From Escherichia phage I29, in sequence record ON286975: a DNA stretch of 64,000 nucleotides, one strand, 5' to 3'. Below, piece by piece: positions 2,824 to 59,018 of the stretch. Each line of letters begins with the position of its first letter. The stretch's first letter is position 1. Under the pieces are notes generated by a model that did no database searches, was not told the DNA's origin, and was given only the letters and a program-made list of their open reading frames with translations. Position numbers and translations under genes: made by a program.

Positions 2824-3642
2824 TTGAGCAAGAAAGAGTCCAACGACAAATATTACACAAACCCTGAGTATGCAGAATATCTTGTTGGTAAAGTAAAAGA
2901 TAAGTATGGAAATTGTGCATACGTTGAGCCTTCTGCTGGAAGAGGTTCTTTTTCAAAACTATTTTCAGAGATACTGTCGTACGATTTAGTACCAGATCCT
3001 GAATTTGAAGGGCCAACACCGTGCATTCAGGCAAACTTCTTGGAGGTGCACCCCAAGGCAGATGTCTTCATAGGTAACCCACCATTTGGCAAGAATTCAT
3101 CTTTAGCTTGCAAATTCTTCAACCATTGTGCATCATTGCTAGAGCTTGGAGGGGCCATAGCCTTCATCTTGCCACGGACATTTGAAAAAATATTTTTTGC
3201 AAACAAATTGGACATGTCGATGCACCTTGTCTACAGCGAAAGGTGCCCTAAGAATTCGTTTTTACTTAATGGCAAACCTTATGACGTGCCGTGTGTTTTC
3301 CAAATTTGGGAGAAAAAGGCGTGTAATAGGGATCCTGTAGAGATTGGAGAGAATAAGTTATTTTCTTTTAGCACTCCAGATGACTACGACTTCTGTGTAA
3401 GACGTGTTGGGTATAATGCTGGAAAAGTATTGGGGGATGATGACCCAAAATCTGAAGAATCGACATATTTCATAAAATCTTTAGTTGACGGTGTTGACAG
3501 AGTGTTTTCTGAATGCTATTCTTCTTTTCAAGAAGAAGCAGGTAAGACTGCCGGAATGAAGAGTATAGGCAAGAAAGAACTACAATACATTTTGGAGACC
3601 AGGTATGATCAAAAGCATAGACTTGACCAAAGAACTCACTGA
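2824..3642 (+). CDS. DNA N6-adenine methyltransferase
   Basis: Motif I EPSAGRGSF, motif IV NPPFG, YYT N-terminal motif; start placed at in-frame TTG after terminator hairpin and GGAGG (track ORF begins 2794). Confidence 0.65.
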   Translation: MSKKESNDKYYTNPEYAEYLVGKVKDKYGNCAYVEPSAGRGSFSKLFSEILSYDLVPDPEFEGPTPCIQANFLEVHPKADVFIGNPPFGKNSSLACKFFNHCASLLELGGAIAFILPRTFEKIFFANKLDMSMHLVYSERCPKNSFLLNGKPYDVPCVFQIWEKKACNRDPVEIGENKLFSFSTPDDYDFCVRRVGYNAGKVLGDDDPKSEESTYFIKSLVDGVDRVFSECYSSFQEEAGKTAGMKSIGKKELQYILETRYDQKHRLDQRTH

Positions 3643-4063
3643 TGCGAAAGCTTTTGGTGAGACAGCGGTACAAAGGGGGCAGGCAATGGGACTGGCACTA
3701 CCTTTCGTCTTAAAAGAGCACTTTACAGATTTTCAACTTATCAAGGGCGATAAGGGAATGCTTATCCTGGAGCATAAGTTGAGTAAGAAACGCTATAAAG
3801 TTGTTTTTAATTCTAAAGCTCCAACAAAACTGGGATTCAGAACTTACAATCTTAACCCATCCTACACTAAGGGTGTTGGAAGGGTAGAACAACAGCATTT
3901 CAGTGCCAGAGCTTCTTTAGCCCCTTTGATGCTAAATTTCTCAGGGGTGGCTTTAGGATACCTTGATAAGAAAAGAGTTCTTCATGTCCGTTTCACAGAC
4001 TTTGTAACGCTTTTAGCTAACAACGAGGTTGATGAAAAGGGACGTGTAAAAACAAACTTCTAA
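3605..4063 (+). CDS. hypothetical protein
   Basis: 152-aa ORF on cluster strand, overlaps methyltransferase 3' end. Confidence 0.4.
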   Translation: MIKSIDLTKELTDAKAFGETAVQRGQAMGLALPFVLKEHFTDFQLIKGDKGMLILEHKLSKKRYKVVFNSKAPTKLGFRTYNLNPSYTKGVGRVEQQHFSARASLAPLMLNFSGVALGYLDKKRVLHVRFTDFVTLLANNEVDEKGRVKTNF

Positions 4064-7469: not shown

Positions 7470-9781
7470 TCACCAAGGTAATTAAAAGCAACGGATGTGA
7501 AGTGGCATTCGATCCAGAACGTTTAAATAAGGCAGCTATTTTCGGTGACGACGGTAACGGCAATTGGTCACACATTGCACTGGATGCATACAAACGACTG
7601 TATGATGGATGTACAACCAAAGAAGTTAACCAAGCTATCATAGACTCCTGTGTTAGCCGTAAAGACGAAGCACATTCCCGTATGGCTGGTCGTGTTCTTA
7701 TTGGTCAGATTTATAAAGAGGCTTTTGGAGGGTTTACAAAGATCCCTTCCTTACCATCATTTTACAATACCATGGTTGAGAAAGGGTATTGGGAGGATAT
7801 GGGCTATAGCTTTACCGAGCTAAACACTTTAGACGCTGTTATTGACCACAGTAAAGATCTCGGTTATGGCTATGCAGTCCTTAAACAGTTTCGCGACAAA
7901 TACGGGATCAAGGATACTCTTAAAGACACCCTGTTTGAATCTCCCCAGATGATGTTTATGGGGATAGCAATGGCTGTCATGAAGAATATGCCGAAAGAAC
8001 GTCGTATCAACGATGTTGTAAAATTGTACACTTATCTGTCCGACTTAAAGATCAATGCCCCGACACCGTACTTAAACGGGCTGCGCACAGGTAAGACAGG
8101 GTATGCATCTTGTTGTGTAATAAAAGCTGACGATACAGCAAAATCTATTGGTGTGGCACGTGAAGTTGCGTACACAATGACGGTTAACCAAGCAGGTATC
8201 GGCTACTATTTATCATCAAGATCTGCAGGCGATGGTGTTCGTGGTAACACTATTAAACATATGGGTAAGATTCCATATTATCGAGGTATTGATGCTGGGG
8301 TTAAGGAGAACAGACAACAATCACGTGGCGGTTCTGCAACAGTATCATTCCTTGCACTGGACCCGCAGATTGATGAGCTAATCCGTTTGAGAAACCCTAT
8401 GACTGTTGCTTCAAAAAGAATCAACACCATGGACTACTCCATCGGTATTAATAGGTCGTTTATCAACCGTGTGGCTAAGAATTTGGATTGGATGCTTGTT
8501 TCTTATAAGCACGCGCCTCAACTGCATGAGGGTATCTTCACCATGTCTATGGAGGAGTTTGATGCAGAGGTTGATCGTATCGCTAAAGATGACAGTATTC
8601 CTAAAACATGGATCCGAGCTAGAGATCTTGCTGTTGAGCTGATCACGCAGCGTACCGAGGTGGGAAGACTGTACGTATACTGGACAGATGAGATGAATAG
8701 ACATACACCTTTTAAAGATGTGATCTATTCAAGTAACCTGTGTGCAGAAATAGCTCTCCCGACAAAAGGCTATTCAGATATGCGTAATATCTTCAAGCAC
8801 GATGTTGATGATGGCGAAGTTGCATTGTGCTTCCTGTCATCTCTTGTAGCTGGAAGGGTTACCCCAGAGGAGTATGAGGATGTTGCATACTACACGGTGC
8901 TTATGATTGACAATGTTATGGAAATCATGACATATCCGTATGAAAATATGGAAAGCACAGTTAAAAAACGCAGATCCATCGGGGTTGGCCTTACCAATGT
9001 TGCACATTTTATTGCCAGCCACAAGGTTACTTACGGATCTCCTGAAAGTAAACAGCTCGTTCACGATCTTGCAGAACTTCACAGCTACAGCTTGCATAAG
9101 GCAAGTTTACGGTTGGCAAAAGAGCGTGGTGTCTGCGAGTGGATGCATAAAACAAAATATCCAGAAGGTTGGTTACCAATCGACACCTACAACAAAGAGG
9201 TCGATAGCGTGGTGAAAGATCCTTCTCTTAAACAGGATTGGGAAGGGTTACGTAAAGAAATCATTGAAAATGGTGGGCTACGTAATAGCGTTCTTGAAGC
9301 ATATATGCCTAATGAAAGCTCTTCGCTGGCAACAAACACCACTAACGGGGTTTATCCTGTCCGTGAGCACATTATCTTTAAAAAGTCGCCACAAGGGCAG
9401 GTGCTGTTTATCGTTCCTGACTATGATGAGTTGAAAGAGTATTACACCTCGGCTTGGGACGTTGATACTAACGACATGATCGATATGTATGCTGTAATTC
9501 AAAAATTCACAGGTCAGGCAATCAGCGCGGATTTATACATAGACTACACCAAGTTGAAAGATGGTAAAATTTCAATGAAGGAGCAGTTAGGGTACCTTAT
9601 CCGTGCCACTAAATTCGGGATGAAGACATGGTATTATTTAAACTCTAGGGTTGGTGCTGGTGACTCCTTGGCAGAGGAACTTCATGCCAAGAAACAGGCT
9701 GAAGATGAAACCAGAAAGAACTATCCTTTGATTGCAGATAGTTCAGTTGAAGATCCGTATTGCGAAAGCTGTGCACTATAA
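7466..9781 (+). CDS. nrdA: ribonucleoside-diphosphate reductase alpha subunit (class I)
   Basis: 771 aa; N-terminal ATP-cone; class I active-site NLCAEIALPT; TTG start after GGAGGA. Confidence 0.9.
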   Translation: MITKVIKSNGCEVAFDPERLNKAAIFGDDGNGNWSHIALDAYKRLYDGCTTKEVNQAIIDSCVSRKDEAHSRMAGRVLIGQIYKEAFGGFTKIPSLPSFYNTMVEKGYWEDMGYSFTELNTLDAVIDHSKDLGYGYAVLKQFRDKYGIKDTLKDTLFESPQMMFMGIAMAVMKNMPKERRINDVVKLYTYLSDLKINAPTPYLNGLRTGKTGYASCCVIKADDTAKSIGVAREVAYTMTVNQAGIGYYLSSRSAGDGVRGNTIKHMGKIPYYRGIDAGVKENRQQSRGGSATVSFLALDPQIDELIRLRNPMTVASKRINTMDYSIGINRSFINRVAKNLDWMLVSYKHAPQLHEGIFTMSMEEFDAEVDRIAKDDSIPKTWIRARDLAVELITQRTEVGRLYVYWTDEMNRHTPFKDVIYSSNLCAEIALPTKGYSDMRNIFKHDVDDGEVALCFLSSLVAGRVTPEEYEDVAYYTVLMIDNVMEIMTYPYENMESTVKKRRSIGVGLTNVAHFIASHKVTYGSPESKQLVHDLAELHSYSLHKASLRLAKERGVCEWMHKTKYPEGWLPIDTYNKEVDSVVKDPSLKQDWEGLRKEIIENGGLRNSVLEAYMPNESSSLATNTTNGVYPVREHIIFKKSPQGQVLFIVPDYDELKEYYTSAWDVDTNDMIDMYAVIQKFTGQAISADLYIDYTKLKDGKISMKEQLGYLIRATKFGMKTWYYLNSRVGAGDSLAEELHAKKQAEDETRKNYPLIADSSVEDPYCESCAL

Positions 9782-9788
9782 TTTTAAA

Positions 9789-9808
9789 GGGGCTTCGGCC
9801 CCATTTTA
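9789..9808 (+). terminator. hairpin with UUCG loop after nrdA
   Basis: ggggc-ttcg-gcccc followed by ATTTT. Confidence 0.45.
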
Positions 9809-9819
9809 GAGGTAGAATA

Positions 9820-10908
9820 ATGGCTGTATTTAATGCTGAGAACACCGCTCATAAAACTGGTGACTATCCGCTGTTTCTGGGACAGCAAATGGGTATGTAC
9901 GACTCTATCAACAAAAAATATCCACAACTGTTTGAACTATACAAAAAACAAAAAGAGCAAGATTGGGCAGAGGATGAAGTGGATTTGTCGCAATCTATTT
10001 CAGATTTTGTAACATGCTCAAAGTCAACTTATGACGTGATGGTACAGACCTTGATGTGGCAATGGGAGGCTGATAGCGTTGCGGCAAGATCGATCATCTG
10101 CCTCTTTTCACCATTCATCACTAATAGTGAGCTTTTCACTCTATTGATGAAACAGTCAGAGATTGAAGTTCTTCACGCACTAACTTACTCAGAGATTGTT
10201 AGACAATGCCTCCCCAATGCCCGTGAGATTATAGAAGAGATTCAGGAAAACCAAAACGTTCTGAGCAGATCCGGCGTTATTGTCAAATACATGCAAGAGC
10301 TTGAGGTTATTGGTGCAAAATACCGCCTGGATCCTTCTAGTGTTGAAGAAGATATTGTGCGGAAATGCATTCTTAGAGCGCTTTTTGCACTTTTAGCCCT
10401 GGAAAGTATTGAGTTTATTGCAAGTTTTGCATGCACTTTCGCAGTAGCTGAACAGGGTATTTTTGTTCAGGTGGCGCAGCTTGTTCAAAAAATCATGCTT
10501 GACGAAATGCTACATTCGAAAGGTGATTTTGCCATCATTGATATCTTGCTTAACGATCCCGCATGGGAGAAAAGCTTCCTGGAGATAAAAGGGGAGTTAA
10601 AAGAGATTCTTGATGAAGTACGAACCAAAGAGTACGGTTGGAGTGACTATATTTTCAGCGAAGGAAGAGCGATTATAGGTCTTAACTCACCGTTGCTTAA
10701 AGAATGGGTTGACTATAACTGCTCACCGATTTATGATTACTACGACATCGACAAAGACTTTGTGCCGCCAACAAAGGACCCGCTACCGTTTATGCAGGTG
10801 TGGATGAAACCTTCATTGCAACAGACGGCGAACCAAGAAATGTCGAACACTGACTACCGCGTCAACACAACTGTTAACGACGCTGAAGAAGAAATTTGGG
10901 AGTTTTAA
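9820..10908 (+). CDS. nrdB: ribonucleoside-diphosphate reductase beta subunit
   Basis: ATG 9820 after hairpin and GAGGTAGAAT; ferritin-like ExxH (DEMLHSKGDF); directly follows nrdA. Confidence 0.8.
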   Translation: MAVFNAENTAHKTGDYPLFLGQQMGMYDSINKKYPQLFELYKKQKEQDWAEDEVDLSQSISDFVTCSKSTYDVMVQTLMWQWEADSVAARSIICLFSPFITNSELFTLLMKQSEIEVLHALTYSEIVRQCLPNAREIIEEIQENQNVLSRSGVIVKYMQELEVIGAKYRLDPSSVEEDIVRKCILRALFALLALESIEFIASFACTFAVAEQGIFVQVAQLVQKIMLDEMLHSKGDFAIIDILLNDPAWEKSFLEIKGELKEILDEVRTKEYGWSDYIFSEGRAIIGLNSPLLKEWVDYNCSPIYDYYDIDKDFVPPTKDPLPFMQVWMKPSLQQTANQEMSNTDYRVNTTVNDAEEEIWEF

Positions 10909-47431: not shown

Positions 47432-47629
47432 TTACACAGGAATTGCTTCAAACAGGCCGTTATCTATACCGTCCTTCAGATAGAGATTATATTCTATGTC
47501 GGTATCTGTGTAAAGGGCAGCATCCAGCATTCTATCTGTGAGTCCATCCATTGGGTGGAGAAACCACCACCCACGCCAGTCAAAGTAACAGCCTGGTGCA
47601 TCTTCTCTTACACGGATTCGATAAATCAT
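47432..47629 (-). CDS. hypothetical protein
   Basis: 65 aa; AGGAGG RBS. Confidence 0.45.
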   Translation of the reverse strand: MIYRIRVREDAPGCYFDWRGWWFLHPMDGLTDRMLDAALYTDTDIEYNLYLKDGIDNGLFEAIPV

Positions 47630-47725
47630 GGGCAGTGGCCTCCTGTTAGTTATACATCCCAGTTTTCTTCGTTCATCACGTCCTCCCGTTCTATGAAGTT
47701 ATAATTGCACACCTTTCAATCTGTG

Positions 47726-48142
47726 TCAACAGAAAACTTCAACAAATTCTTCCACAGTTTTAATGTCGTGGGAAAAAGGTTTACGGCTATAACGGGCAAT
47801 AGCACTATCAACCACCGCCCGGTACTCCAAATCTTCAGAATATTTCATGAAGCATTGTAGCGTCTCTGGACAGATAGCTAAATAGCTCCACCACCCCTCT
47901 TCAGATTGGTAGTCGAATCCCATACTCTCCAACCATGAAGCATATACGCCTGCACCCTCAAGCCAGTGAGTATTTTCATCCAGAAACTTGTTAATAGACA
48001 TGTGAGCTTCTAAGCATTTATCCAGCTCCTTTCCGTTAACCAGCCACGCACTGACCGTGGCGCATCCAAGGTCTACAGATTGAGTTGACAGGTTGTATTG
48101 GTCATAGTTCTCAGGCTTAACAATGATATCTTCTAATGTCAT
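47726..48142 (-). CDS. hypothetical protein
   Basis: 138 aa; AGGAGA RBS. Confidence 0.5.
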   Translation of the reverse strand: MTLEDIIVKPENYDQYNLSTQSVDLGCATVSAWLVNGKELDKCLEAHMSINKFLDENTHWLEGAGVYASWLESMGFDYQSEEGWWSYLAICPETLQCFMKYSEDLEYRAVVDSAIARYSRKPFSHDIKTVEEFVEVFC

Positions 48143-48161
48143 TTTTCAGATCTCCTTATAC

Positions 48162-48189
48162 AAAAATGCCCCACCCTTTCGGGCAGGGC
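48162..48189 (-). terminator. intrinsic terminator with GAAA loop (minus strand)
   Basis: gccctgccc-gaaa-gggtggggc then TTTTT on minus strand; same 22-mer recurs at 59796-59817. Confidence 0.6.
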
Positions 48190-48204
48190 TATGTCAGTTA
48201 GGTG

Positions 48205-48828
48205 CTAAAAGTATTCATAGAGGTATCCATCGGGAGCTGGAATTTTTTCATGAATGTAGTAATCAACACATATTCCGGTTTCTCTTCTACAAGAATTGTG
48301 GGATACCCATTCTTTAAGAACGTTGCCATTCATGTCCAGCCTCCTTACATTTTTACACCGTCTACCGCTGGTGCTTCTATGCAACAGAATATCCTCCGTC
48401 TGCTTGTCTTTATTTTCTCCCCAGGTCGTTAAACGGATATTATCAAAAGAGTACCCTTTGAAATCATCTATCCTATCACAAGAAGGCTTTTTCCTTTTGT
48501 CGTATCCGCTGGCTACCCACTGATCATACAACTCTTTGTAACCGTTCAGGTATAGCCACTCCTTAAACTCCTTTTTGGTGTAAGTAGGAGGCGGGTGACC
48601 TCTCTTCTTACTGTTGCACTTTTGAGTCTTGTACAACACGCGGATAACACCTTTTTCTGAAGAGTCGTGGGAAAATTGGTCAGCCTCCCTGCTGGCCTTC
48701 TTACAACACTCTTTGCACTTATTAAGATGACCGTCAGACATCTTTGGGTGTTTGTAGAACTCGGAGAGGTTTTTCACCTCTCCGCACTTGATGCACCTCT
48801 TACAATGCGTGGATTCTACTTTTGCCAT
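48205..48828 (-). CDS. putative HNH-like homing endonuclease (degenerate), Cys-rich N-terminus
   Basis: N-terminal [10 protein letters not shown]...[11 protein letters not shown] zinc-finger-like; C-terminal [15 protein letters not shown] resembles HNH NLxLVT..EN; start at MAKVESTHC overlapping SSB-like 3' end. Confidence 0.35.
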
Positions 48829-50071
48829 ATTGCAAACCCACCGGAGCGAAAGGTATGTCATCACAGAAGTCATACTGTGCTGGATTCTGATCCATTGGGT
48901 CATCTTCCTCATCATTTACAGGAGGAGCGTCTACAGTGTTTTGCTGTGGAGCTGCTTCCTGTTTGGCAGCCTGGGGTTCTTGATAGTCAGTTGACCCAGC
49001 ACCGTTCTTGATCCAATCGTACAACGGCTCAGCCAGATTAGTCAAGACATCTTTTGCTTCTGCAGTAATTGCCGCTGCAAAATCATCAACTTTCGTTTTC
49101 TTGTCAATACGGCGACAAGCGTTCAACACCGCATTGCCGACACTGGCACCTACTTCATCTTCAGTTCGGTTGGTGGCTTGAGCATACTCTTTCTTAAGCT
49201 CAATGGTGACTACGTGCAGTGTTTTAGCCACGCCTAGTGGGTCGTCCACCTTAAACCCGCGATCCAGGATGATCTGCAACGCATTGATGCTATGTCCCGT
49301 CTCCACACCGATAGGGTCGTAAGAGGATTTACGCTTGCCACCAGAGCCTTGAGTGCCGTTCTCTGCCTTAGGAGGATAGGCCTTGAAACCACTGATAATG
49401 TTTCCGGTGTCTTTGTCAACAATGGCTGCAACACGACCACCTACCACCAGGTCTTTAAGCTGCTCATCAGTGACAACCATAGCACCTTCGCCAATCTTGT
49501 GGTCATTAACAGTAACCACGTTGCCAACAATCTGAGTCACATCACCATAGATGCGTAAAACGTCTTGATTGGCATTCTGCTGAGGTTTCTGCTTCTGGCC
49601 TTGTGATTGTGCACCTTGTTGCTGTTTTTGCTGCTGAGTCGCTGCTGGAGCCTCTCCTGCACCCAGCTTAACCATCTTAGCCAGTGAGCCTTTGTAATAG
49701 GTCTTACCGTTATGCTCGTTTGCCTTCAAAGGGATATTTACGATCCATCCTGGCGTTACGGTTTCCCACTTGTCATCAATCTTAACAGAGACAGAGTCTT
49801 GATGACCCGGTTTAAGCAGTTTATCACCCATGCTGATCCAGACTTCTTCACCACCTTGAAGCAGGTTATCAGAGGAATCCAGTTCAGAAATCAGTAAAGA
49901 GATGGTGTGGCTGGATTCAATTTTCTTACCTTGCCACACAGTGGTTTTAATACCTGTTGTAGGATCAGCACCTTTGATAGGCTTGATGCTGACACGTTTA
50001 ATCATGCCGTGAGCCAGTAAAACAGTTTCACGCGGATTCATCGGGTTAGCGAATTGTTGAATAACGCTCAT
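48800..50071 (-). CDS. SSB-like protein (OB-fold N-terminus, Gln-rich linker, acidic DDIPF tail)
   Basis: Acidic tail ...[22 protein letters not shown] resembles SSB C-terminal DDDIPF but is followed by 15 more residues overlapping the HNH-like gene. Confidence 0.5.
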
Positions 50072-50436
50072 TATTTGTCTCCTTGTTCTTCGTTAGTGTT
50101 TGCCGTGTGTGCAAACCCTGCTTGAATTAATTTGTCCTGAACTTGAGCCAACAGCCCCATTGCAAAACTTGTGGTCCCAGAGAGGGCCATCAGCATATCT
50201 CGTTGTTGAGCTACCCAACCTAAGGCATAGTCCAAACGACGATATTTTTCTTCTTCACGCAGAGCTTGAAATAATTGTTCAGCCTCTGGTTGTTGTGTGA
50301 GCTCCTGAAGTCTTCCCATGAAAGAAGAAAGCACTAGCAGAAGAGACACTTGATCTTTACTTAACCCTAAGAAAAATTCTTGAGGTTGTTCTTGCTCGTT
50401 CATCGCAACCGACGCTTGATCGTTCATTTGTTCCAT
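50071..50436 (-). CDS. hypothetical protein
   Basis: 121 aa; ATGA coupling to SSB-like gene. Confidence 0.5.
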   Translation of the reverse strand: MEQMNDQASVAMNEQEQPQEFFLGLSKDQVSLLLVLSSFMGRLQELTQQPEAEQLFQALREEEKYRRLDYALGWVAQQRDMLMALSGTTSFAMGLLAQVQDKLIQAGFAHTANTNEEQGDK

Positions 50437-50519
50437 TATGGAATCTCCGATTTTATTTGAACAACATAGAAGGAGACACTATTTTAGCATCCCCTTCTGC
50501 AAATTACAATAGGTATTTG

Positions 50520-50765
50520 TTAGCCAATCACTTCGAAAGTTCCCCAATTCCCGTCCAGCAGGCAGGTGATCGGATCCCCATCGTCGTCAAAGATTTCAAA
50601 GTTTTCAGCATCCAGGATGTGGCCCTCGAACACAATACTTTCGTCGCCACCACCAGAAATAACAGCGTATTCCTTACCTTGAGTCAAGTTTTGACACCCT
50701 TTGCCACCAAAACCTACTTCCACACAACGTACTTTCTGTCCTGCGCGAGCAACTACTTCAGCCAT
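50520..50765 (-). CDS. hypothetical protein
   Basis: 81 aa; AGGAGACC RBS. Confidence 0.45.
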   Translation of the reverse strand: MAEVVARAGQKVRCVEVGFGGKGCQNLTQGKEYAVISGGGDESIVFEGHILDAENFEIFDDDGDPITCLLDGNWGTFEVIG

Positions 50766-50782
50766 CTTAAGGTCTCCTGATA

Positions 50783-51103
50783 TTAATCGTCAAGTTCAAA
50801 ATAGATTTTAACAGCTTCATCAAAGATTGGAATCCCGATGTTGTTGATAAGCTGCCAAACTACCATATCTTTACCTGGGTCTGGGAGAATGTCAACCTTT
50901 CTCCATGCGCTGTATATCCAGTTCGGACCACCTTCTGCACTAACTGGCAGATTTTCACCAGCCTCCTGCAGATACTTATACAGCAAAAGATACTCTGGAT
51001 ACTCTAGAACACTGTCCTCTGTAGTATATAGCAGTTCACGGTATACTTTTAAGAACCCTGCTGGGGTAATGTTTTCAGTCTTCATTTGCCGCTTCTCCTG
51101 CAT
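50783..51103 (-). CDS. hypothetical protein
   Basis: 106 aa; AGGAGAAGCGGC RBS. Confidence 0.45.
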   Translation of the reverse strand: MQEKRQMKTENITPAGFLKVYRELLYTTEDSVLEYPEYLLLYKYLQEAGENLPVSAEGGPNWIYSAWRKVDILPDPGKDMVVWQLINNIGIPIFDEAVKIYFELDD

Positions 51104-53615: not shown

Positions 53616-54457
53616 CAATAGTTCAGGTAGGTCGTTAAGCTACCCCGCACCATTACGTGCACAGCCATACGGTTTCCTGTATGGATCGGACTATCTCATT
53701 ACCTTGTTACCAAGGCACCTCTCATTTCGACCGCACTTGCTGGCCTACTCTACTCGCTTCTTCACACCAAACTATGTTGGAGCTATGCTTTCGATAGTCT
53801 CTGAACGTTACTACCAGGTGTAGTTTTTAGAGATATGTTTCCACTGTCTTCTTTGCTTTATGGCTCTGACCGTCTCATAAGGATACCCAAGATCCCTAAT
53901 CTCGCATTGTCGTAGACCACTCTGCAACAGTTCGCAAATCTCCGTTACCTCATCCTCGGTCAGCACAGCGTTGGCATTATACTCACCGACTGGCCTTACT
54001 CTGAGTTCATTATCGTAGGCGTGTTTGATATTTCCACCAGGGGTAGTCCATTCCAGGTTCCAGTGTGCATTGTTGTACTTATTTCCATCCTTATGGTTCA
54101 CCCATGTGAGCTTTTCAGGATCAGGGTTCGGTACAAAGCATTCAGCAACCAAGTGGTGGACACCTTTTGTGCACTGCTTCCCCTCGATGAGCATGGTTAC
54201 GCAAAGGTAACCTCTACCATTATCAAAACAAAACATTGTTGTATGATCACGTTTCGATAAAGGTATTGTTCCATCATCAAACACGGTATACCCGTGATAA
54301 TCAGCTGATCTAGCCATTTTAACTACACCCCTTTAGTCTTCGCTGCGGATTAGCATATTGAGCTTTTACCATGTTCAGGTGTAAAAGTCAACTTAGCCTT
54401 CCCGTCAATTAAAGAGGTTTTCGACGTGCATCACTGCACGAAGCCACAATGTTATTT
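53616..54457 (-). mobile_element. group I intron (842 nt) with HNH homing endonuclease ORF
   Basis: Conserved P (aattgacgggaagg), Q (aatccgcagc), R (gttcagagacta), S (gagatagtcc) elements; IGS 5'-CAUUGUGG-3' pairs with exon 1 end CCAU (U-G at splice site) and exon 2 start GAUG; intron ends in G. Confidence 0.8.
53811..54317 (-). CDS. HNH homing endonuclease (I-HmuI-like), intron-encoded
   Basis: GVHHLVAECF...VNHKDGNKYNNAHWNLEWTT matches VHRLVA...DHKDGNKDNN..NLRWVT; C-terminal HTH-like LTEDEVTEICELLQSG...WKHI; closed by stem gtgtagtt/aactacac. Confidence 0.8.
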   Translation of the reverse strand: MARSADYHGYTVFDDGTIPLSKRDHTTMFCFDNGRGYLCVTMLIEGKQCTKGVHHLVAECFVPNPDPEKLTWVNHKDGNKYNNAHWNLEWTTPGGNIKHAYDNELRVRPVGEYNANAVLTEDEVTEICELLQSGLRQCEIRDLGYPYETVRAIKQRRQWKHISKNYTW

Positions 54458-56881
54458 ATGGTAATAGATAATACGACGAACACCTTCATCGTACCACCCA
54501 CGCTTCACCATTTGATGGTGCATGAGTATCCCAACTAAGTCACACAACGATGCGCCGCCATTTTGTTGGTATGCATTAAGTAAAGAGTGTTTAGATCGGG
54601 TCCAGATAGCATGACCATCAAAAGAGTAGATAAACTTCTTACCCGTTGCTTCCCAGAATTTCTCCAGATCTTCTTTACGCCCCTTAAGACCAGGGTTGGC
54701 ATCCCAGAGTGCATCGATTACCCTTTGTCCCAACTCTGGAGAGATGTCCAGCATATCTGCAACTTTATCTTTTTGTGCCCCATACATAACCCCATACGTG
54801 ATAGGTTTACCGTCGTTACGAGACACCTCTCTACCTGCTACTTTTGTATATGCCTCAGCATTGTTTTGGTGTGCGTCCCCGTTACTTACAACATCGTAAT
54901 ACAGGCCGTTGTCGAACTCAAAGGCACCCCAAGCCCCGATAAGCTGCTCTAAGTTGGACCCGTCAATACCGATCTCAAAGTATCCTGGAGGAACACCCCA
55001 CAGACTGCGCATCTCTTTACCCATAACCACTTTAGGAGATGGTTTAGGCATGTTTGCACAAATACTGTGTTTCTGTCGGGAAGTGTTTGTTAATCCAGAA
55101 CTTTTAGCAGGAAGCTTATGGTCAATCTTCAAACGTGGGTGATTAAGAAGACCAGTATCAACCTTATCCTCCTTGATTGGATCAAGGACCGATCTGCGGT
55201 TTCGCAATGATAACCACAAGACGATATCTTTAGCCATCTCTCCGTTCAATTTTTCAAGATTCGGGCATAGGTGTCCAAACGTATCTTTCAGTTGCGGAGA
55301 AGTAATAAGTGCCCTAGCTTTTCTACGTATTTTCCCGAATACTTCCTTTTTAATCCTTTCGGAGTTAGGAAAGCTTCGGAACTTGTGCACGGTTGTCTGA
55401 AACTTAGCATCAGTTTTGTTCCAGAAGTTGATAATCAGGTCACAATACTCTGACTCTAAAAGCTCGTCCATGTATGCATATACTCGTGCATCAACATCTG
55501 CATCAGGTAGAGCTTTCTTCTTGCTGTCTTTAGTTACATCCTTAGTTCTCCACATTGTCGGAAGCCAACCAGCACTGATCAGGTATCGCTTAATGTCGTC
55601 CTGATTGCTGATTTTCATAGGTATCTTGCAGTCCGGCATTCGCTTCTGCTGTAGATCACTTATTGCCTGATCCATCAGCTCTTTAGGTAAAGGTTGTGGT
55701 GTGGAAGTGCCCTTAATATAGCCTCTCAAGAAATCAGCCATCTTATCAGGGTCTTTGCAGCCCATCTCTTCACACCATTTTATCCCCATCTTGCTGACAT
55801 CTCCTGTGGAGGTAAATGCTCGCTTAGGCGGGGCTTTGAACTCCAAAGCACTCATGTCCACAGGATAGCCAAGCTTATCTTTTAACCATTTCCAACCATT
55901 GTTGGAGATTGTCCCATCTTGGTTAAACGGCTTTTCAGGGAACTTGGGCCGCTGAGACATTGACAGCTCTTTTAAAGGAAGTTGAGGTTCAACACGATCA
56001 GCGATTTCTTTCATCCACGCATCGCAACGGTCACGTAAAGCAATAGCTCCATCTATGTCGAAGTATACACCCTGACGGGCCTGCAGCTCCATCAGGAAGT
56101 GCTGCAGCATGCCTCGGCGTAATGCGTTCTTCCAGGTGATTTTCTTGAACCCTTTCGGCTTCTCTTTGGCTGGATCGTACATAAAGTTCTGCATGTCAGA
56201 TTTGCCGTAGAATACACCTTTTGATTCCGCTACCAGCTCTTTCCAGAGCAGCTCCTGGATGATAACGTCCTCGAATACACGATCCACATACTTCCACAAC
56301 GGAAGATCGCGCCAGTCATCAATTTGAACTTTCTGGTTACCAAGGGCGTAGCCCCATGCCATAAGGCCGTGAGGACCAACAGGCTGCATTTTCTTAGTAA
56401 CCGGGTTGAATACAGAGTCCGGACAACCTTTTGGTAAAGGGCGATCAGGCCACAAGATTCTGCTCATCGCCAACGTATCAAACAGGTTAACCTGGTGGTC
56501 GTTGATAGTCCCCATGCATTTAGGATCACGGAACATATCAAAATGAATACCGGATAATCTTTCCATCAGCATAAAGTCATAACTGTAGCAGTTATGGCAG
56601 TTCAAAGCTGTTGGTGACCAGTCGGAATTGCCTGTAAGCCAACCTTCCAACTCCGAAAAATCTGCTATGCGAACTTCAAAATCTTTATGAAGAGTTTTCT
56701 TTGCCAGAATAAAGTTCTTAGCCTTCTCTATATCCTCTTCGGAGTAGTGTGTGCGGTCATTTAGAGGAAGGAACAGCATAAAACGGTTCTTATTCAGCTC
56801 TTTAAACAGGCCGCAGTGATAATAAAGATCTGGATCTTCCAGCAAACCGGATGACTCAAAGTCGAACGACCACATGCTCAT
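54458..56881 (-). CDS. DNA polymerase (family A) with 3'-5' exonuclease, exon 1
   Basis: Exo I FDFESSG; motif A DGSNLEQLIGAW; motif B KPITYGVMYGAQ; ends ...GWYDEGVRRIIYYH just before motif C; AAGGAG RBS. Confidence 0.85.
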
Positions 56882-56939: not shown

Positions 56940-59018
56940 TTAAAAAGGTGTTTCATCATCCTCAAAACCAGGGACCGGATCAGAGGATGGATCATCGTAT
57001 TGGAGGTCTTCCTGCGTGTCAATAGGCTTGACAGTGGGTGTTACAACCTTATCAGCCACAACCTTGCCCATAGGTGTTTCTACAACTGCATGCTCCTGAT
57101 CCTCAAACATAGCCTGAGGTCTCCAAACAACCTCCCCACCTTCTCCGTCTGTAAACATCTGCATTTCTTTGTCCCAGTACCAATTACTGGCATCATGGAA
57201 CTTACCTGTATGCGGATCCATAACTAAAGTGTCAGCAATACCTAAAGTTTTTGCTGGACGGTTTTTAAGACCTACCAGACGGACACGTCCACGAGAACGA
57301 TCCACCATTTCTTCGGCCTCGACACCTATGACTACCCAACTCAACTGTTCAAGCCCAGCCGATCCTCGCAAATTCTCTTTTCGCACAGGATACCAGAAAG
57401 GTAATGGGTTACCATCCTTGTCCTTAGGGGGCACAATCTCTGTACGTTTGAGGTGAGCGATCACCAAGATAAACACGTTAAACTGCTTACAAAACGCAGC
57501 CAGTTGGGTCATAGCCATGTCCAGTTCTTTTCGCTCATCCTTAACATTAAGCCCTGAAATTACCATGGACAGGTGATCCAGCACAATATAACGACAATGG
57601 TACAGGCAAACCATTTGCTTAAGCTTGGTAATCAACTCGTCCACTGGAATAGACCCGAAATGTTTGAACACTTTGATTTTTCCAGCTTTTGCCCATGATT
57701 GGTGAATCTCTGCGTGTTCTTGATCAGTTAAAAACTGGCTAGGATCTTCAACAAACTCTTTAACATCAAACCCTAACTGGTTTGCATACAAGGAGTTAAT
57801 TGCTTCCTCTGGGTCCTCCTCAAGATGAATCATGCATAGACGATCATCCTCTTCATAGTCATCGGCCTTCGGGCATGTCGGGTCCATTAGGTATCTTGCA
57901 ATACAGTGTTCCAGTTTTTTAGCCACGGTTGTTTTACCGCCGCCTGATGGACCTGTAAGCATTACAAGTGTCCCTTTGTGCAAGCCTTTTAGCATTTTTT
58001 GCAGTTTTGGGAACTCTGCACTGATATCTACCCCGTTGGAAGTCTTTTTCCGCAAAGACTCGATAGAGAAGTCTTCTAAATCCGACACAGCATCAGGCAC
58101 ATATTTAACAGGGTGCCGGAACATGTTGACAATATCTTCCAGCTTTTTAGCCTTCAGCATGTCTCGGATATCTTTTACACCGTCAGGGTCATTTACTTCA
58201 CCAGGGTATTCTACGTGGTAAACGTTATCAGCCATCAAAAATGCTGCGATATTGTGCGTGGCCTCAACACCTTTAATGACGTGTTTTTGCTTCTCTACCT
58301 CGTTAGCTGCATCGTTATCCATTGCCAGCACAACTGTTCCATAGCTACGGATAAACTTCTCATTGTTTGCAAAAGTATCTACTGCGTTTGCACATCCACA
58401 GTTAATTCCAACAAAAGGCAGGCAGGGTTTTCCTGCCAGATCACCACCGTTGATAACTGCGTCGATCCCGTCCTGGACCTCTTTAGCCCACTGCTTCACC
58501 TTTGCCGGGGCTTTAGCGTTGGTGAGAATCCCTTTTACTTGTATCTGATATGCAGCCTGCCATGCTGCAATAACATCACCTTCTCCCTCACAAACGTTAA
58601 TCTGCTTACGGTTGTTGGAAGATGCACACAGCTTTTGACCAAACATCTGGGAGTTGGCCTTTACGATGCCAACAACGGAGAAATGGCCCCTTTGCTCTTT
58701 AGGAATAGTCCAGTCACGCTTTTTGAAACCAGACAGATTTCCGTAGCGGTCGTAATATGGGAAATATGTTGCAGTGACTGTCACACCGTCTTCTTGGGAC
58801 AATGCTGATCGCACACCAAAATATTGTGCAGCCATCAGACCGATATTTTGTTGTGGGACAGGGACAATTTTAGTATTTTCTAAAACAGTCTCTACAGTTT
58901 CAACTTCTTTTTCATCACGATAGTCTCGTTTCACACTTCCCCCACTTTTATACTTAGTTGCTTTCGGGTTTGGCTCACCGAAACGGTTGTATGCAGATGC
59001 CATAAATTTACTTCCCAT
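56940..59018 (-). CDS. primase-helicase (TOPRIM primase + DnaB-like helicase)
   Basis: TOPRIM VCEGEGD...MDNDAANE; helicase Walker A GPSGGGKTT; AAGGAG RBS; no N-terminal zinc finger seen. Confidence 0.8.
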   Translation of the reverse strand: MGSKFMASAYNRFGEPNPKATKYKSGGSVKRDYRDEKEVETVETVLENTKIVPVPQQNIGLMAAQYFGVRSALSQEDGVTVTATYFPYYDRYGNLSGFKKRDWTIPKEQRGHFSVVGIVKANSQMFGQKLCASSNNRKQINVCEGEGDVIAAWQAAYQIQVKGILTNAKAPAKVKQWAKEVQDGIDAVINGGDLAGKPCLPFVGINCGCANAVDTFANNEKFIRSYGTVVLAMDNDAANEVEKQKHVIKGVEATHNIAAFLMADNVYHVEYPGEVNDPDGVKDIRDMLKAKKLEDIVNMFRHPVKYVPDAVSDLEDFSIESLRKKTSNGVDISAEFPKLQKMLKGLHKGTLVMLTGPSGGGKTTVAKKLEHCIARYLMDPTCPKADDYEEDDRLCMIHLEEDPEEAINSLYANQLGFDVKEFVEDPSQFLTDQEHAEIHQSWAKAGKIKVFKHFGSIPVDELITKLKQMVCLYHCRYIVLDHLSMVISGLNVKDERKELDMAMTQLAAFCKQFNVFILVIAHLKRTEIVPPKDKDGNPLPFWYPVRKENLRGSAGLEQLSWVVIGVEAEEMVDRSRGRVRLVGLKNRPAKTLGIADTLVMDPHTGKFHDASNWYWDKEMQMFTDGEGGEVVWRPQAMFEDQEHAVVETPMGKVVADKVVTPTVKPIDTQEDLQYDDPSSDPVPGFEDDETPF

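Follow-up and report, generated by a model that had tools for sequence, protein, structure and literature searches.

A conserved extension behind the DDIPF tip of phage SSB-like proteins, overlapped by a homing-type endonuclease gene in Escherichia phage I29

The C-terminal tip of bacterial SSB, the protein that binds single-stranded DNA, is in textbooks a strictly terminal docking peptide. In Escherichia phage I29 (sequence record ON286975, of which the window analysed here is a stretch of 64,000 nucleotides) a gene for an SSB-like protein of 423 residues reads through such a tip, ...DFCDDIPF with the Phe at position 408, and goes on for another 15 residues until a TAA. Inside the codons of this extension, on the same strand and in a different frame, starts a second, Cys-rich gene that codes for an endonuclease of the HNH type. 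The question that the locus raises is how a terminal peptide came to be internal, and what the residues behind it may do. A sequence-only reading of the window had proposed that a free-standing endonuclease gene was inserted at the 3' end of ssb and altered it. The insertion itself agrees with what we found, since the gene sits ahead of the ssb terminator in some close relatives and is missing from others, but the tail is not its product. When homologues were compared the same extension was found with no endonuclease adjacent to it (Salmonella phage SSE121, the phi92-like VEcB, Klebsiella phage K54lambda1.1.1 and the metagenomic locus L034), and dozens of canonical SSBs carry it too.

Taken as a whole, we consider it fairly probable that this is an SSB-like protein with a selected post-tip module, overlapped by a homing-type endonuclease that is exchanged with it as a block. 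The anatomy of the junction, its polymorphism, the predicted folds, the selection acting on the extension and the recurrence of this architecture on unrelated genes are documented in the data below.

The junction between ssb and the endonuclease gene

Both open reading frames (ORFs) were recovered when they were derived again from the window, the first with its 15 residues after DFCDDIPF and the second overlapping it. The overlap spans 29 nucleotides including the ssb stop, the ATG of the endonuclease is part of a TATG within the Gln-Tyr-Gly codons (CAA TAT GGC) of the extension, and its first zinc-binding Cys codons come directly after the stop. Over positions 47500-51000 the sequence shares 99.9% identity with Shigella phage CM1 and 97.6% with rV5, and by sequence the window is that of an rV5-like myovirus of the genus Vequintavirus. 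In the GenBank entries of rV5 (gp209 and gp208) and CM1 both ORFs have been given these same boundaries; gp209 (ORF214) of rV5 is annotated as hypothetical and gp208 as “endonuclease” or “endonuclease VII”. The junction is neither a product of chance nor a sequencing error, because it is identical in 31 phage records and the combination of tip and extension is present in at least 96 distinct proteins of the IMG/VR database.

The endonuclease gene lacks both a promoter and a terminator of its own. A strong intrinsic terminator lies 3' of the endonuclease in the window; in genomes without the endonuclease, such as APECc02, it comes straight behind the ssb stop and is unchanged in sequence. This, together with a start codon taken from the TATG of the Gln-Tyr-Gly codons, suggests that ssb and the gene are transcribed together and that their translation is probably coupled.

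The extension recurs in many phages and on unrelated proteins

The extension belongs to a family of peptides with the consensus A-P-[IV]-G-L-[QP]-[YF]-[PGA]-x2-[AL]-[IL]-[YHN]-[ACV]-[ILM], and its length was 14–16 residues in 68 of 69 examples. The homologues with no adjacent endonuclease end in ..DDDIPFAPIGLQYGRNFIHCI (SSE121), ..APIGLQYGRNFLHCF (VEcB) and ..APIGLPYGRNFIHCI (K54lambda1.1.1), and canonical SSBs with an oligonucleotide-binding (OB) fold from unrelated phages are also extended (BUCT618 and the IMG/VR loci L011, L014 and L015). A broader DNA pattern retrieved from IMG/VR at least 120 loci with at least 96 distinct tails, most of them with no endonuclease nearby. The majority of these extended proteins have the size of an SSB (150–250 residues), with tail variants such as APIGLPYPRHAIYVI, APIGLPFPSHSIYAL, APVGLPFPRHAIHAV and APIGLQYPALLMCM. 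Since the module follows the tip in so many distinct proteins, mostly without an endonuclease, it cannot be taken as a by-product of insertion. Remnants of an endonuclease gene were looked for downstream of extension-only alleles and none was found in VEcB, SSE121, BUCT618, L014 or L011, only in L034. The same variants of the extension were seen in protein-database entries from Proteus, Providencia, Salmonella, E. coli and Xenorhabdus, the tail-profile matches being fragments of less than 90 residues that were used for variants and not for counts. A scan of GTDB genomes with a narrow QYG pattern gave a single match, in a Sodalis prophage, and a locus search with the family alignment, which was dominated by the generic F[DC]DDIPF pattern, gave nine loci.

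SSBs are not the only carriers. The primase/helicases of related phages also end in a tip plus extension (K54_rec2 ..DDDTPFAPIGLQYAKHAIYVI, KE23 ..DDDTPFAPIGLQYANHAIYVL and GAP31 ..DNDTPFAPIGLQYANHAIYAL), and the Seunavirus and Mydovirus orthologues of the primase/helicase of the window finish in ..DDTPF followed by APIGLQYA(N/K)HAIYV(L/I), often with an overlapping HNH gene behind. Within PHROG 4477, the family of the SSB-like protein, tails with and without the extension are intermingled however far the members have diverged (for example ..DFEDVPFAPIGLQYGRSRIYAL vs ..DFEDVPF). The feature tables of two Klebsiella Mydovirus records, L036 (OY978796) and L037 (OY979426), seem to be offset: an “RNR small subunit” is annotated over the tail of the primase/helicase and an “exonuclease” over the SSB-like gene, in a frame full of stops.

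The open literature (subscription-only papers were not covered) gave us nothing on the post-tip extension, on primase/helicases that carry it or on a link between it and zinc-ribbon HNH genes, and the family is apparently undescribed. Known recognition motifs were compared by eye with the extension, and neither the consensus of the beta-clamp-binding motif nor those of the PIP box or the RecA-binding FxxA motif fits it.

Selection acts in the SSB frame

Eighteen distinct extension-coding sequences were compared in the frame of SSB and in that of the endonuclease. The ratio of nonsynonymous to synonymous differences per site (pN/pS) was 0.28 in the SSB frame (pS 0.83) and 0.95 in the endonuclease frame, and amino acid identity in the overlap was 52% and 25% respectively. 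Codon positions 1/2/3 of the SSB frame had entropies of 0.69/0.44/1.49 bits, and all these figures were the same in the subsets with and without endonuclease. The Ser codons of the extension are swapped among AGT, TCG and TCA and the codon families of Leu are also interchanged; in BUCT618 a TCG replaces AGT at the same Ser and there is no ATG. Between VEcB and the Phapecoctavirus nieznany the extension differs by six substitutions, all of them synonymous in the SSB frame. As judged from these patterns of substitution, the extension is a peptide under purifying selection in the SSB frame and the first eight codons of the endonuclease are unconstrained. The contrast between the two frames indicates that the endonuclease borrows its start codon from a conserved tail module that was there before.

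These patterns speak directly to two ways of explaining the extension away. One is that it is an accidental read-through peptide without function, left when the endonuclease displaced the ssb stop. In its favour, the extension is found in Vequintavirus only together with one type of endonuclease 5' end (see below) and the homology with extension-less alleles ends exactly at the Phe codon. However, purifying selection acts in the SSB frame and the overlapping endonuclease codons look neutral, nearly all of the at least 96 distinct proteins with the module lack an endonuclease, as do several homologues, a second type of endonuclease at the same site leaves a normal IPF-stop, and L034 has lost the endonuclease and kept the extension intact. 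We regard this explanation as hardly credible. The other is that conservation operates on the nucleic acid, as a recognition or homing site of the endonuclease, a ribosome-binding region or some other RNA or DNA signal. It is true that the extension contains the endonuclease ATG and, 8 nucleotides upstream of it, a stretch rich in GG (GGTGGG), and zinc-ribbon endonucleases are found only at extensions of the QY(G/A) type, whose codons give TATG. Against it, most of the variation falls on third codon positions in the SSB frame and pS is near saturation, Ser and Leu codon families are interchanged with the same pattern in endonuclease-free lineages, and BUCT618, L011 and L016 keep the peptide without the ATG, which leaves a nucleic acid signal very improbable.

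Allele states among close relatives

We made a census of 115 records of near-identical Vequintavirus phages, a number that includes GenBank/RefSeq duplicates. The state of the window, i.e., extension plus a full-length endonuclease of what we call type A, was found with an identical junction in 31/115 records; 20/115 had a type B endonuclease and no extension, and 64/115 had neither. An endonuclease is thus present or absent at a single locus (51/115 have one, 31 type A + 20 type B), and ssb stops right after the tip Phe in 84/115. Within the genus the extension appears only alongside the 5' end of a type A endonuclease (31/31). From about residue 22 on the type B gene is ca. 89% identical to type A, whereas its N-terminus differs (MKCKRCGEDKEAPDFY..). 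The ssb of these alleles terminates as ..EFDDSIPF-stop, and a Shine-Dalgarno sequence of its own serves the endonuclease, with the ATG 10 nucleotides downstream; bov25_3, for example, has a type B endonuclease at the same site and an ssb that is not extended. Both states are represented in the BASEL collection, where DrSchubert, MaxBurger and EmilHeitz have the extension and RudolfGeigy (Bas52) does not. Codon 403 (48848-48870) is Cys in type A alleles (DFCDDIPF) and Asp elsewhere (TFDDDIPF, EFDDSIPF). About 16 records labelled as Campylobacter phages with C. jejuni as host (MG0656xx; D1, A147, C2 and others) are 98% identical to rV5-like phages of E. coli at the locus, and their host labels look doubtful.

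Extended and unextended alleles cease to be homologous at the Phe408 codon or inside it (query positions 112/113) and are so again right after the endonuclease stop, whereas homology between type A and type B endonucleases resumes at nucleotide 82 of the gene. The flanks were compared by eye for type B, and the density of single nucleotide polymorphisms (SNPs) was computed for the window against APECc02: there were 0–3 substitutions per 60 nucleotides across ssb (about 1 elsewhere), and 6 per 60 just upstream and 5 just downstream of the junction. Several alleles are broken or recombined. V18 has a type B copy truncated at its 5' end, without start codon or first CxxC. L034, a metagenomic relative with 83% identity, retains the extension intact followed by ca. 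17 nucleotides of the 5' end and ca. 22 of the 3' end of the endonuclease around an internal deletion. The metagenomic L157 has the upstream flank of type A, DFCDDIPF, but neither extension nor endonuclease. In a clade of 76% identity, L033, which lacks both, has a different intergenic segment of ca. 75 nucleotides (3745-3830) where L031 has 3542-3560, and the site would therefore act as a replaceable cassette rather than by simple insertion and deletion. The presence/absence polymorphism, the raised SNPs in the flanks, the decayed copies and the recombinant allele make the gene look like a free-standing homing endonuclease in a cycle of gain, decay and loss.

Zinc-ribbon HNH genes at other extended tails

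HNH genes with the same zinc ribbon (C.KCG....FYKH..MADGH.NKCKEC) begin inside or at the end of QY(G/A)-type extensions on genes that differ from each other. They were found at tails of the SSB-like family (Vequintavirus, the clade of L031, and the Phapecoctavirus phages nieznany and Mt1B1_P17), of canonical SSBs (L018 and the Sodalis prophage), of T1-like small SSBs (ESh4 and L016), of an unrelated protein of 280 residues (L017) and of Seunavirus primase/helicases (KE23 and GAP31). The catalytic bodies behind the common ribbon are different, PacI-like in the window and canonical HH..CH elsewhere. The codons of QY(G/A) supply a TATG, and among ca. 88 extensions of other types that were sampled none had a zinc-ribbon HNH neighbour. 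It would seem that this endonuclease lineage uses the tip plus extension coding sequence as landing site and start, and that recombination at the invariant ..GAYATHCCNTTY.. tip codons may move the extension and the 5' end of the endonuclease as one block.

The two proteins

The protein encoded by ssb matched PHROG 4477, a family of unknown function, with E=3.6e-174; residues 1–408 aligned to positions 1–393 of the 393 in the profile, and the extension fell outside. Pfam models, PF00436 included, gave no match at E<=0.1, and the NCBIfam SSB model matched the tail only (E=0.76). An AlphaFold2 (AF2) model built on 37 homologues predicts the domains listed in Table 1 with a Gln-rich disordered linker at residues 141–168 and a disordered tail region from 359 to 423, extension included. 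A search of its fold in BFVD with Foldseek gave weak matches (E 1e-3 to 4e-2) to DUF2815, “phage ssDNA-binding domain” and “DNA helix destabilizing” proteins. Of the features of a bacterial-type SSB, the OB-fold core is predicted for the 423-residue protein, and DDIPF with a free carboxylate at the extreme C-terminus is found in the unextended relatives but not in the window allele. The OB-fold-like N-terminus put forward in the sequence-only reading is thus borne out by the beta domain of residues 1–140 and by the SSB-like prediction for an orthologue in a preprint. The Gln-rich linker that it had placed before the acidic tail does exist, but in the model it joins the two beta domains and not the OB domain to the tail. 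From the model, this is a predicted replisome-associated protein binding single-stranded DNA (ssDNA), with a gp2.5-like or SSB-like OB fold, and the database label “hypothetical protein” should read SSB-like. The orthologue, Bas52_0087 of phage RudolfGeigy (Bas52), has been predicted to be SSB-like, with a pair of OB folds, a bundle of four helices and a C-terminus that is disordered and has an FDDDIPF tip; it is required to trigger the DRT10 (UG17) reverse-transcriptase defence, from which D252V and Y351C mutants escape and which is modulated by ExoI/SbcB, and the extended alleles are not mentioned there (bioRxiv 10.64898/2026.04.29.721553).

The endonuclease matched PHROG 1035 (3e-41). A weak match to R.PacI (E=0.026) covers the motif KPSxDR..GYS..N..L..N. 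The predicted fold is PacI/I-HmuI-like, i.e., of the beta-beta-alpha-metal type, and the CxxC pairs expected of structural zinc sites are present (C12, C15, C38 and C41). The description of the ORF as Cys-rich and HNH-like was accurate, as shown by the PacI-like fold of the HNH superfamily and the N-terminal zinc ribbon. The name “endonuclease VII” comes from PHROG 1035 and GenBank names only. Nothing supports identity with T4 endonuclease VII (the Holliday-junction resolvase gp49), and the Endonuclease_7 family of Pfam gave nothing at E<=5; going by these matches the label should read PacI-like HNH homing-type endonuclease. Most members of the family start 1–3 residues ahead of the first Cys in an alignment of 36, and the eight additional residues at the N-terminus of the window protein simply come from reading the extension in another frame.

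What the extension may do

In the scenario that we favour the helical bundle of the SSB-like protein would serve for oligomerisation; its long acidic tail contains, ahead of the extension, a copy of the docking tip of the host SSB. The endonuclease, with its zinc ribbon, PacI-like HNH core and small putative DNA-binding module, lies in the interval from the end of ssb to the terminator. Extension and endonuclease 5' end behave as a single presence/absence block, which would be swapped among co-infecting Vequintavirus relatives, and the endonuclease would cleave endonuclease-free alleles near the tip-coding sequence. The alpha-carboxylate of the terminal Phe of the SSB C-terminal tip (SSB-Ct) contacts a conserved Arg in the structures of its complexes with ExoI, RecQ and PriA, and docking needs both the Phe side chain and this free carboxylate. 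An internal IPF should therefore not bind the host SSB-interacting proteins in the canonical way. By removing the free carboxylate and adding a new hydrophobic C-terminus, the extension could change which proteins the tail engages, be it the phage polymerase or ExoI and other SSB partners of the host. That it caps or retunes the specificity of the tail for its partners is a tentative proposal, to which we give a little less than even chances.

Several points weigh against this scenario. AF2 leaves the extended tail disordered and undocked, and no conserved neighbour gene that could be the partner of the extension was found among 84 loci (the best cluster had 17/84). The canonical HNH histidines are absent from the endonuclease, which matched no nuclease model of Pfam or NCBIfam. 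Binding of ssDNA, endonuclease activity and homing are all deduced from sequences and models, and the duplicates mentioned above inflate the record counts. The nucleotide identity of the extension is 76% against 82% for the gene in L034 and 62% against 80% in L031, and such a divergence, roughly tracking that of the gene, would fit an old, vertically inherited extension with repeated loss equally well as a gain with the endonuclease. Near-identical phages are viable in either state, and the extension may therefore have only a small effect.

The history of the extension might thus be different, with an ancestral extension behind which the endonuclease was inserted later, and extension-less alleles derived by deletion or cassette replacement; the endonuclease would then have contributed nothing to ssb in this lineage. 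The presence of the extension in homologues from Seunavirus, Mydovirus, Justusliebigvirus as well as Phapecoctavirus, on deep and shallow branches of the family alike, goes in this direction, as do its divergence, of the same order as that of the gene, and the different segment of L033, which is not a clean empty site. However, the states interleave at every level of divergence, even with identical upstream tails (P0129 vs P0137; L157 vs the window), and this points to repeated exchange rather than a single loss; there is also no extension-only allele among the 115 Vequintavirus records. We think that an ancestral extension of this kind is on balance unlikely, though it deserves serious consideration. 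The main rival as regards function is suggested by an F|AP junction that is invariant, by a length that stays fixed and by a C-terminus that is hydrophobic: the extension would be either a removable pro-peptide, trimmed at F|AP by a putative host or phage protease to expose the functional IPF-COOH, or a C-terminal degron, extended and unextended alleles being functionally equivalent. The IPF-AP.GL junction is nearly invariant with no variation in spacing, the length stays at 14–16 residues, and the C-terminus is always of the form hydrophobic-x-small-hydrophobic (..IHAL, ..IYAL, ..LYALA), an ending that is reminiscent of ssrA-like tags. Furthermore, both types of allele persist in near-identical phages, and the extension is found on different proteins that have only the PF tip in common. 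Yet a degron beside a disordered tail of 50 residues would be expected to remove the tip too; we see this rival as a rather improbable one.

Beyond the favoured scenario, one may speculate that the extension is a portable “tip cap” that switches the tails of SSBs and primase/helicases between a state that mimics the host SSB (free ..IPF-COOH, which could engage ExoI and other SSB partners) and a masked or re-targeted one, with a dedicated family of zinc-ribbon HNH endonucleases landing and starting on the coding sequence of the module and spreading it from one replication gene to other, unrelated ones, and with the polymorphism of otherwise near-identical phages acting as an immune-evasion or host-takeover switch. 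The last element comes from the fact that the unextended orthologue triggers the ExoI-linked DRT10 defence. We hold this broader idea to be a long shot.

Features of the locus and its surroundings

Table 1. Coordinates of the features described at the ssb locus (positions in the window).
Feature	Position	Strand	Basis
SSB-like replication protein, 423 residues including the extension; orthologue of rV5 gp209 and Bas52_0087; PHROG 4477	48800..50071	(-)	ORF call, profile, AF2 model
N-terminal OB-fold domain (predicted), residues 1-140	49652..50071	(-)	Confident beta domain in AF2
Second small beta-barrel (predicted), residues 171-232; OB-fold-2 in the preprint	49376..49561	(-)	AF2 secondary structure, pLDDT; legend of preprint Figure S6
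Four-helix bundle (predicted), residues 253-355 (helices 253-270, 278-299, 304-321, 328-355), proximal to D252, contains Y351	49007..49315	(-)	AF2
Disordered acidic tail, residues 359-408, ending in the host-SSB-like DDIPF tip (48848-48862; residues 404-408)	48848..48997	(-)	pLDDT <50
Post-tip extension of 15 residues, AP[IV]GL[QP][YF].. module family (14-16 residues)	48803..48847	(-)	Homologue tails, codon statistics
Allele-specific block: extension, ssb stop and first ~36 endonuclease codons; separates type A (window) from type B	48719..48847	(-)	Homology breakpoints
Free-standing homing-endonuclease-like gene, rV5 gp208, 207 residues, ATG at 48828; “endonuclease VII” in databases	48205..48828	(-)	
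Zinc ribbon, C12, C15, C38, C41	48706..48795	(-)	Cys invariant in alignment of 36 family members; begins directly after ssb stop
PacI-like beta-beta-alpha-metal nuclease core (predicted), KPSxDR..Y..N..L..N, residues 114-140	48409..48489	(-)	
Putative C-terminal DNA-binding module, residues 155-207	48208..48366	(-)	
Intrinsic terminator, 9-bp stem with 7 GC pairs plus T-run	48168..48189	(-)	Common to all alleles
Primase/helicase, C-terminus ..GFEDDETPF (DPVPGFEDDETPF, then stop); second SSB-tip-like tail	56940..59018	(-)	Tail sequence; DnaB_C and AAA_25 matches

The ssb gene is part of a replication module, downstream on the (-) strand of a family-A polymerase (54452-56881) and of the DnaB-type primase/helicase. 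In rV5 (L001, 8751-9501) and CM1 (L002, 8761-9501), upstream of the region, the family-A polymerase is annotated in fragments around an H-N-H homing endonuclease (rv5_gp220/gp223; CM1_00206/00207), which indicates that the module hosts several homing-type endonucleases. A gene for 121 residues (50071-50436, (-) strand, PHROG 7310, a family of unknown function) lies just upstream of ssb and overlaps its start by one nucleotide (TAATG); its product could be a partner of the SSB-like protein. In the phi92-like VEcB and nieznany a gene for about 130 residues precedes the SSB-like gene, likened to the former by size alone. A further acidic tail with an aromatic terminus, ..NDAEEEIWEF, ends an ORF of 382 residues at 9760-10908 on the (+) strand.

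Significance and comparison with known systems

The SSB-like nature of the orthologue (2026 preprint), the annotation of the endonuclease (in GenBank, mislabelled) and the presence of homing endonucleases beside SSB genes (T4) are already known. What the locus adds is a class of phage proteins, large and apparently not described before, which spans canonical SSBs, the SSB-like family and primase/helicases and in which a conserved, selected module of 14–16 residues follows the tip, challenging the rule that the tip is strictly terminal. With such a module, either the tail is recognised in a second way or it undergoes a processing step that has been overlooked. Near-isogenic natural alleles in the BASEL collection, together with the DRT10/ExoI-linked phenotype of the unextended orthologue, make the question directly testable. 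Besides, a lineage of homing endonucleases whose start codon lies time and again within the module, at the ends of different replication genes, would be a clear case of a selfish gene exploiting a conserved peptide-coding sequence.

The window endonuclease differs from R.PacI (PDB 3LDY/3M7K) and I-HmuI (1U3E) in being phage-borne and monocistronic, with no methyltransferase partner and with an extra putative C-terminal DNA-binding module, and the sequence similarity is marginal. In its genetics it resembles the Seg/Mob endonucleases of T4-like phages, of which SegG, a free-standing homing endonuclease, adjoins the SSB gene, gene 32 (PMC2988022). As in that case, a nuclease gene lies between conserved genes and beside an SSB gene, is present or absent in close relatives, and has divergent flanks and decayed copies. 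Unlike them, the nuclease of the window is a PacI-like HNH with a zinc ribbon and not a GIY-YIG enzyme, its start codon lies inside the conserved C-terminal module of the upstream gene, and its type of N-terminal zinc ribbon recurs, as far as the sequences tell, at extended tails of unrelated genes.

The SSB-like protein is identical to Bas52_0087 at 404/408 (99%) of residues 1–408, with D252 and Y351 conserved and the same predicted architecture. However, the latter ends in ...SFDDDIPF with no endonuclease downstream, whereas the window allele has DFCDDIPF plus 15 residues and the overlapping endonuclease. With the SSB-Ct of E. coli (..DFDDDIPF-COOH, which docks ExoI, chi, PriA, RecQ and others) it shares an acidic disordered tail with the same DDIPF pentapeptide and a predicted OB-fold core, but it falls outside the PF00436 and NCBIfam SSB models, has another domain architecture, and its Phe is internal, with the alpha-carboxylate unavailable.

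A further parallel is phage T7, whose SSB, gp2.5, and primase-helicase, gp4, both have acidic Phe-terminated C-terminal tails that dock on the gp5 DNA polymerase, as established by the Richardson laboratory. The tip sequence copies the host SSB (DDIPF or DDTPF) and not the ..DGDF of T7, and the post-tip extension has no counterpart there. Here too an acidic C-terminal tail with an aromatic end is common to the SSB-like protein (..DDIPF within its tail) and the primase/helicase (which ends in ..EDDETPF), and the polymerase is of family A and T7-like; the BFVD fold matches of the SSB-like protein to proteins of the gp2.5 type were weak.

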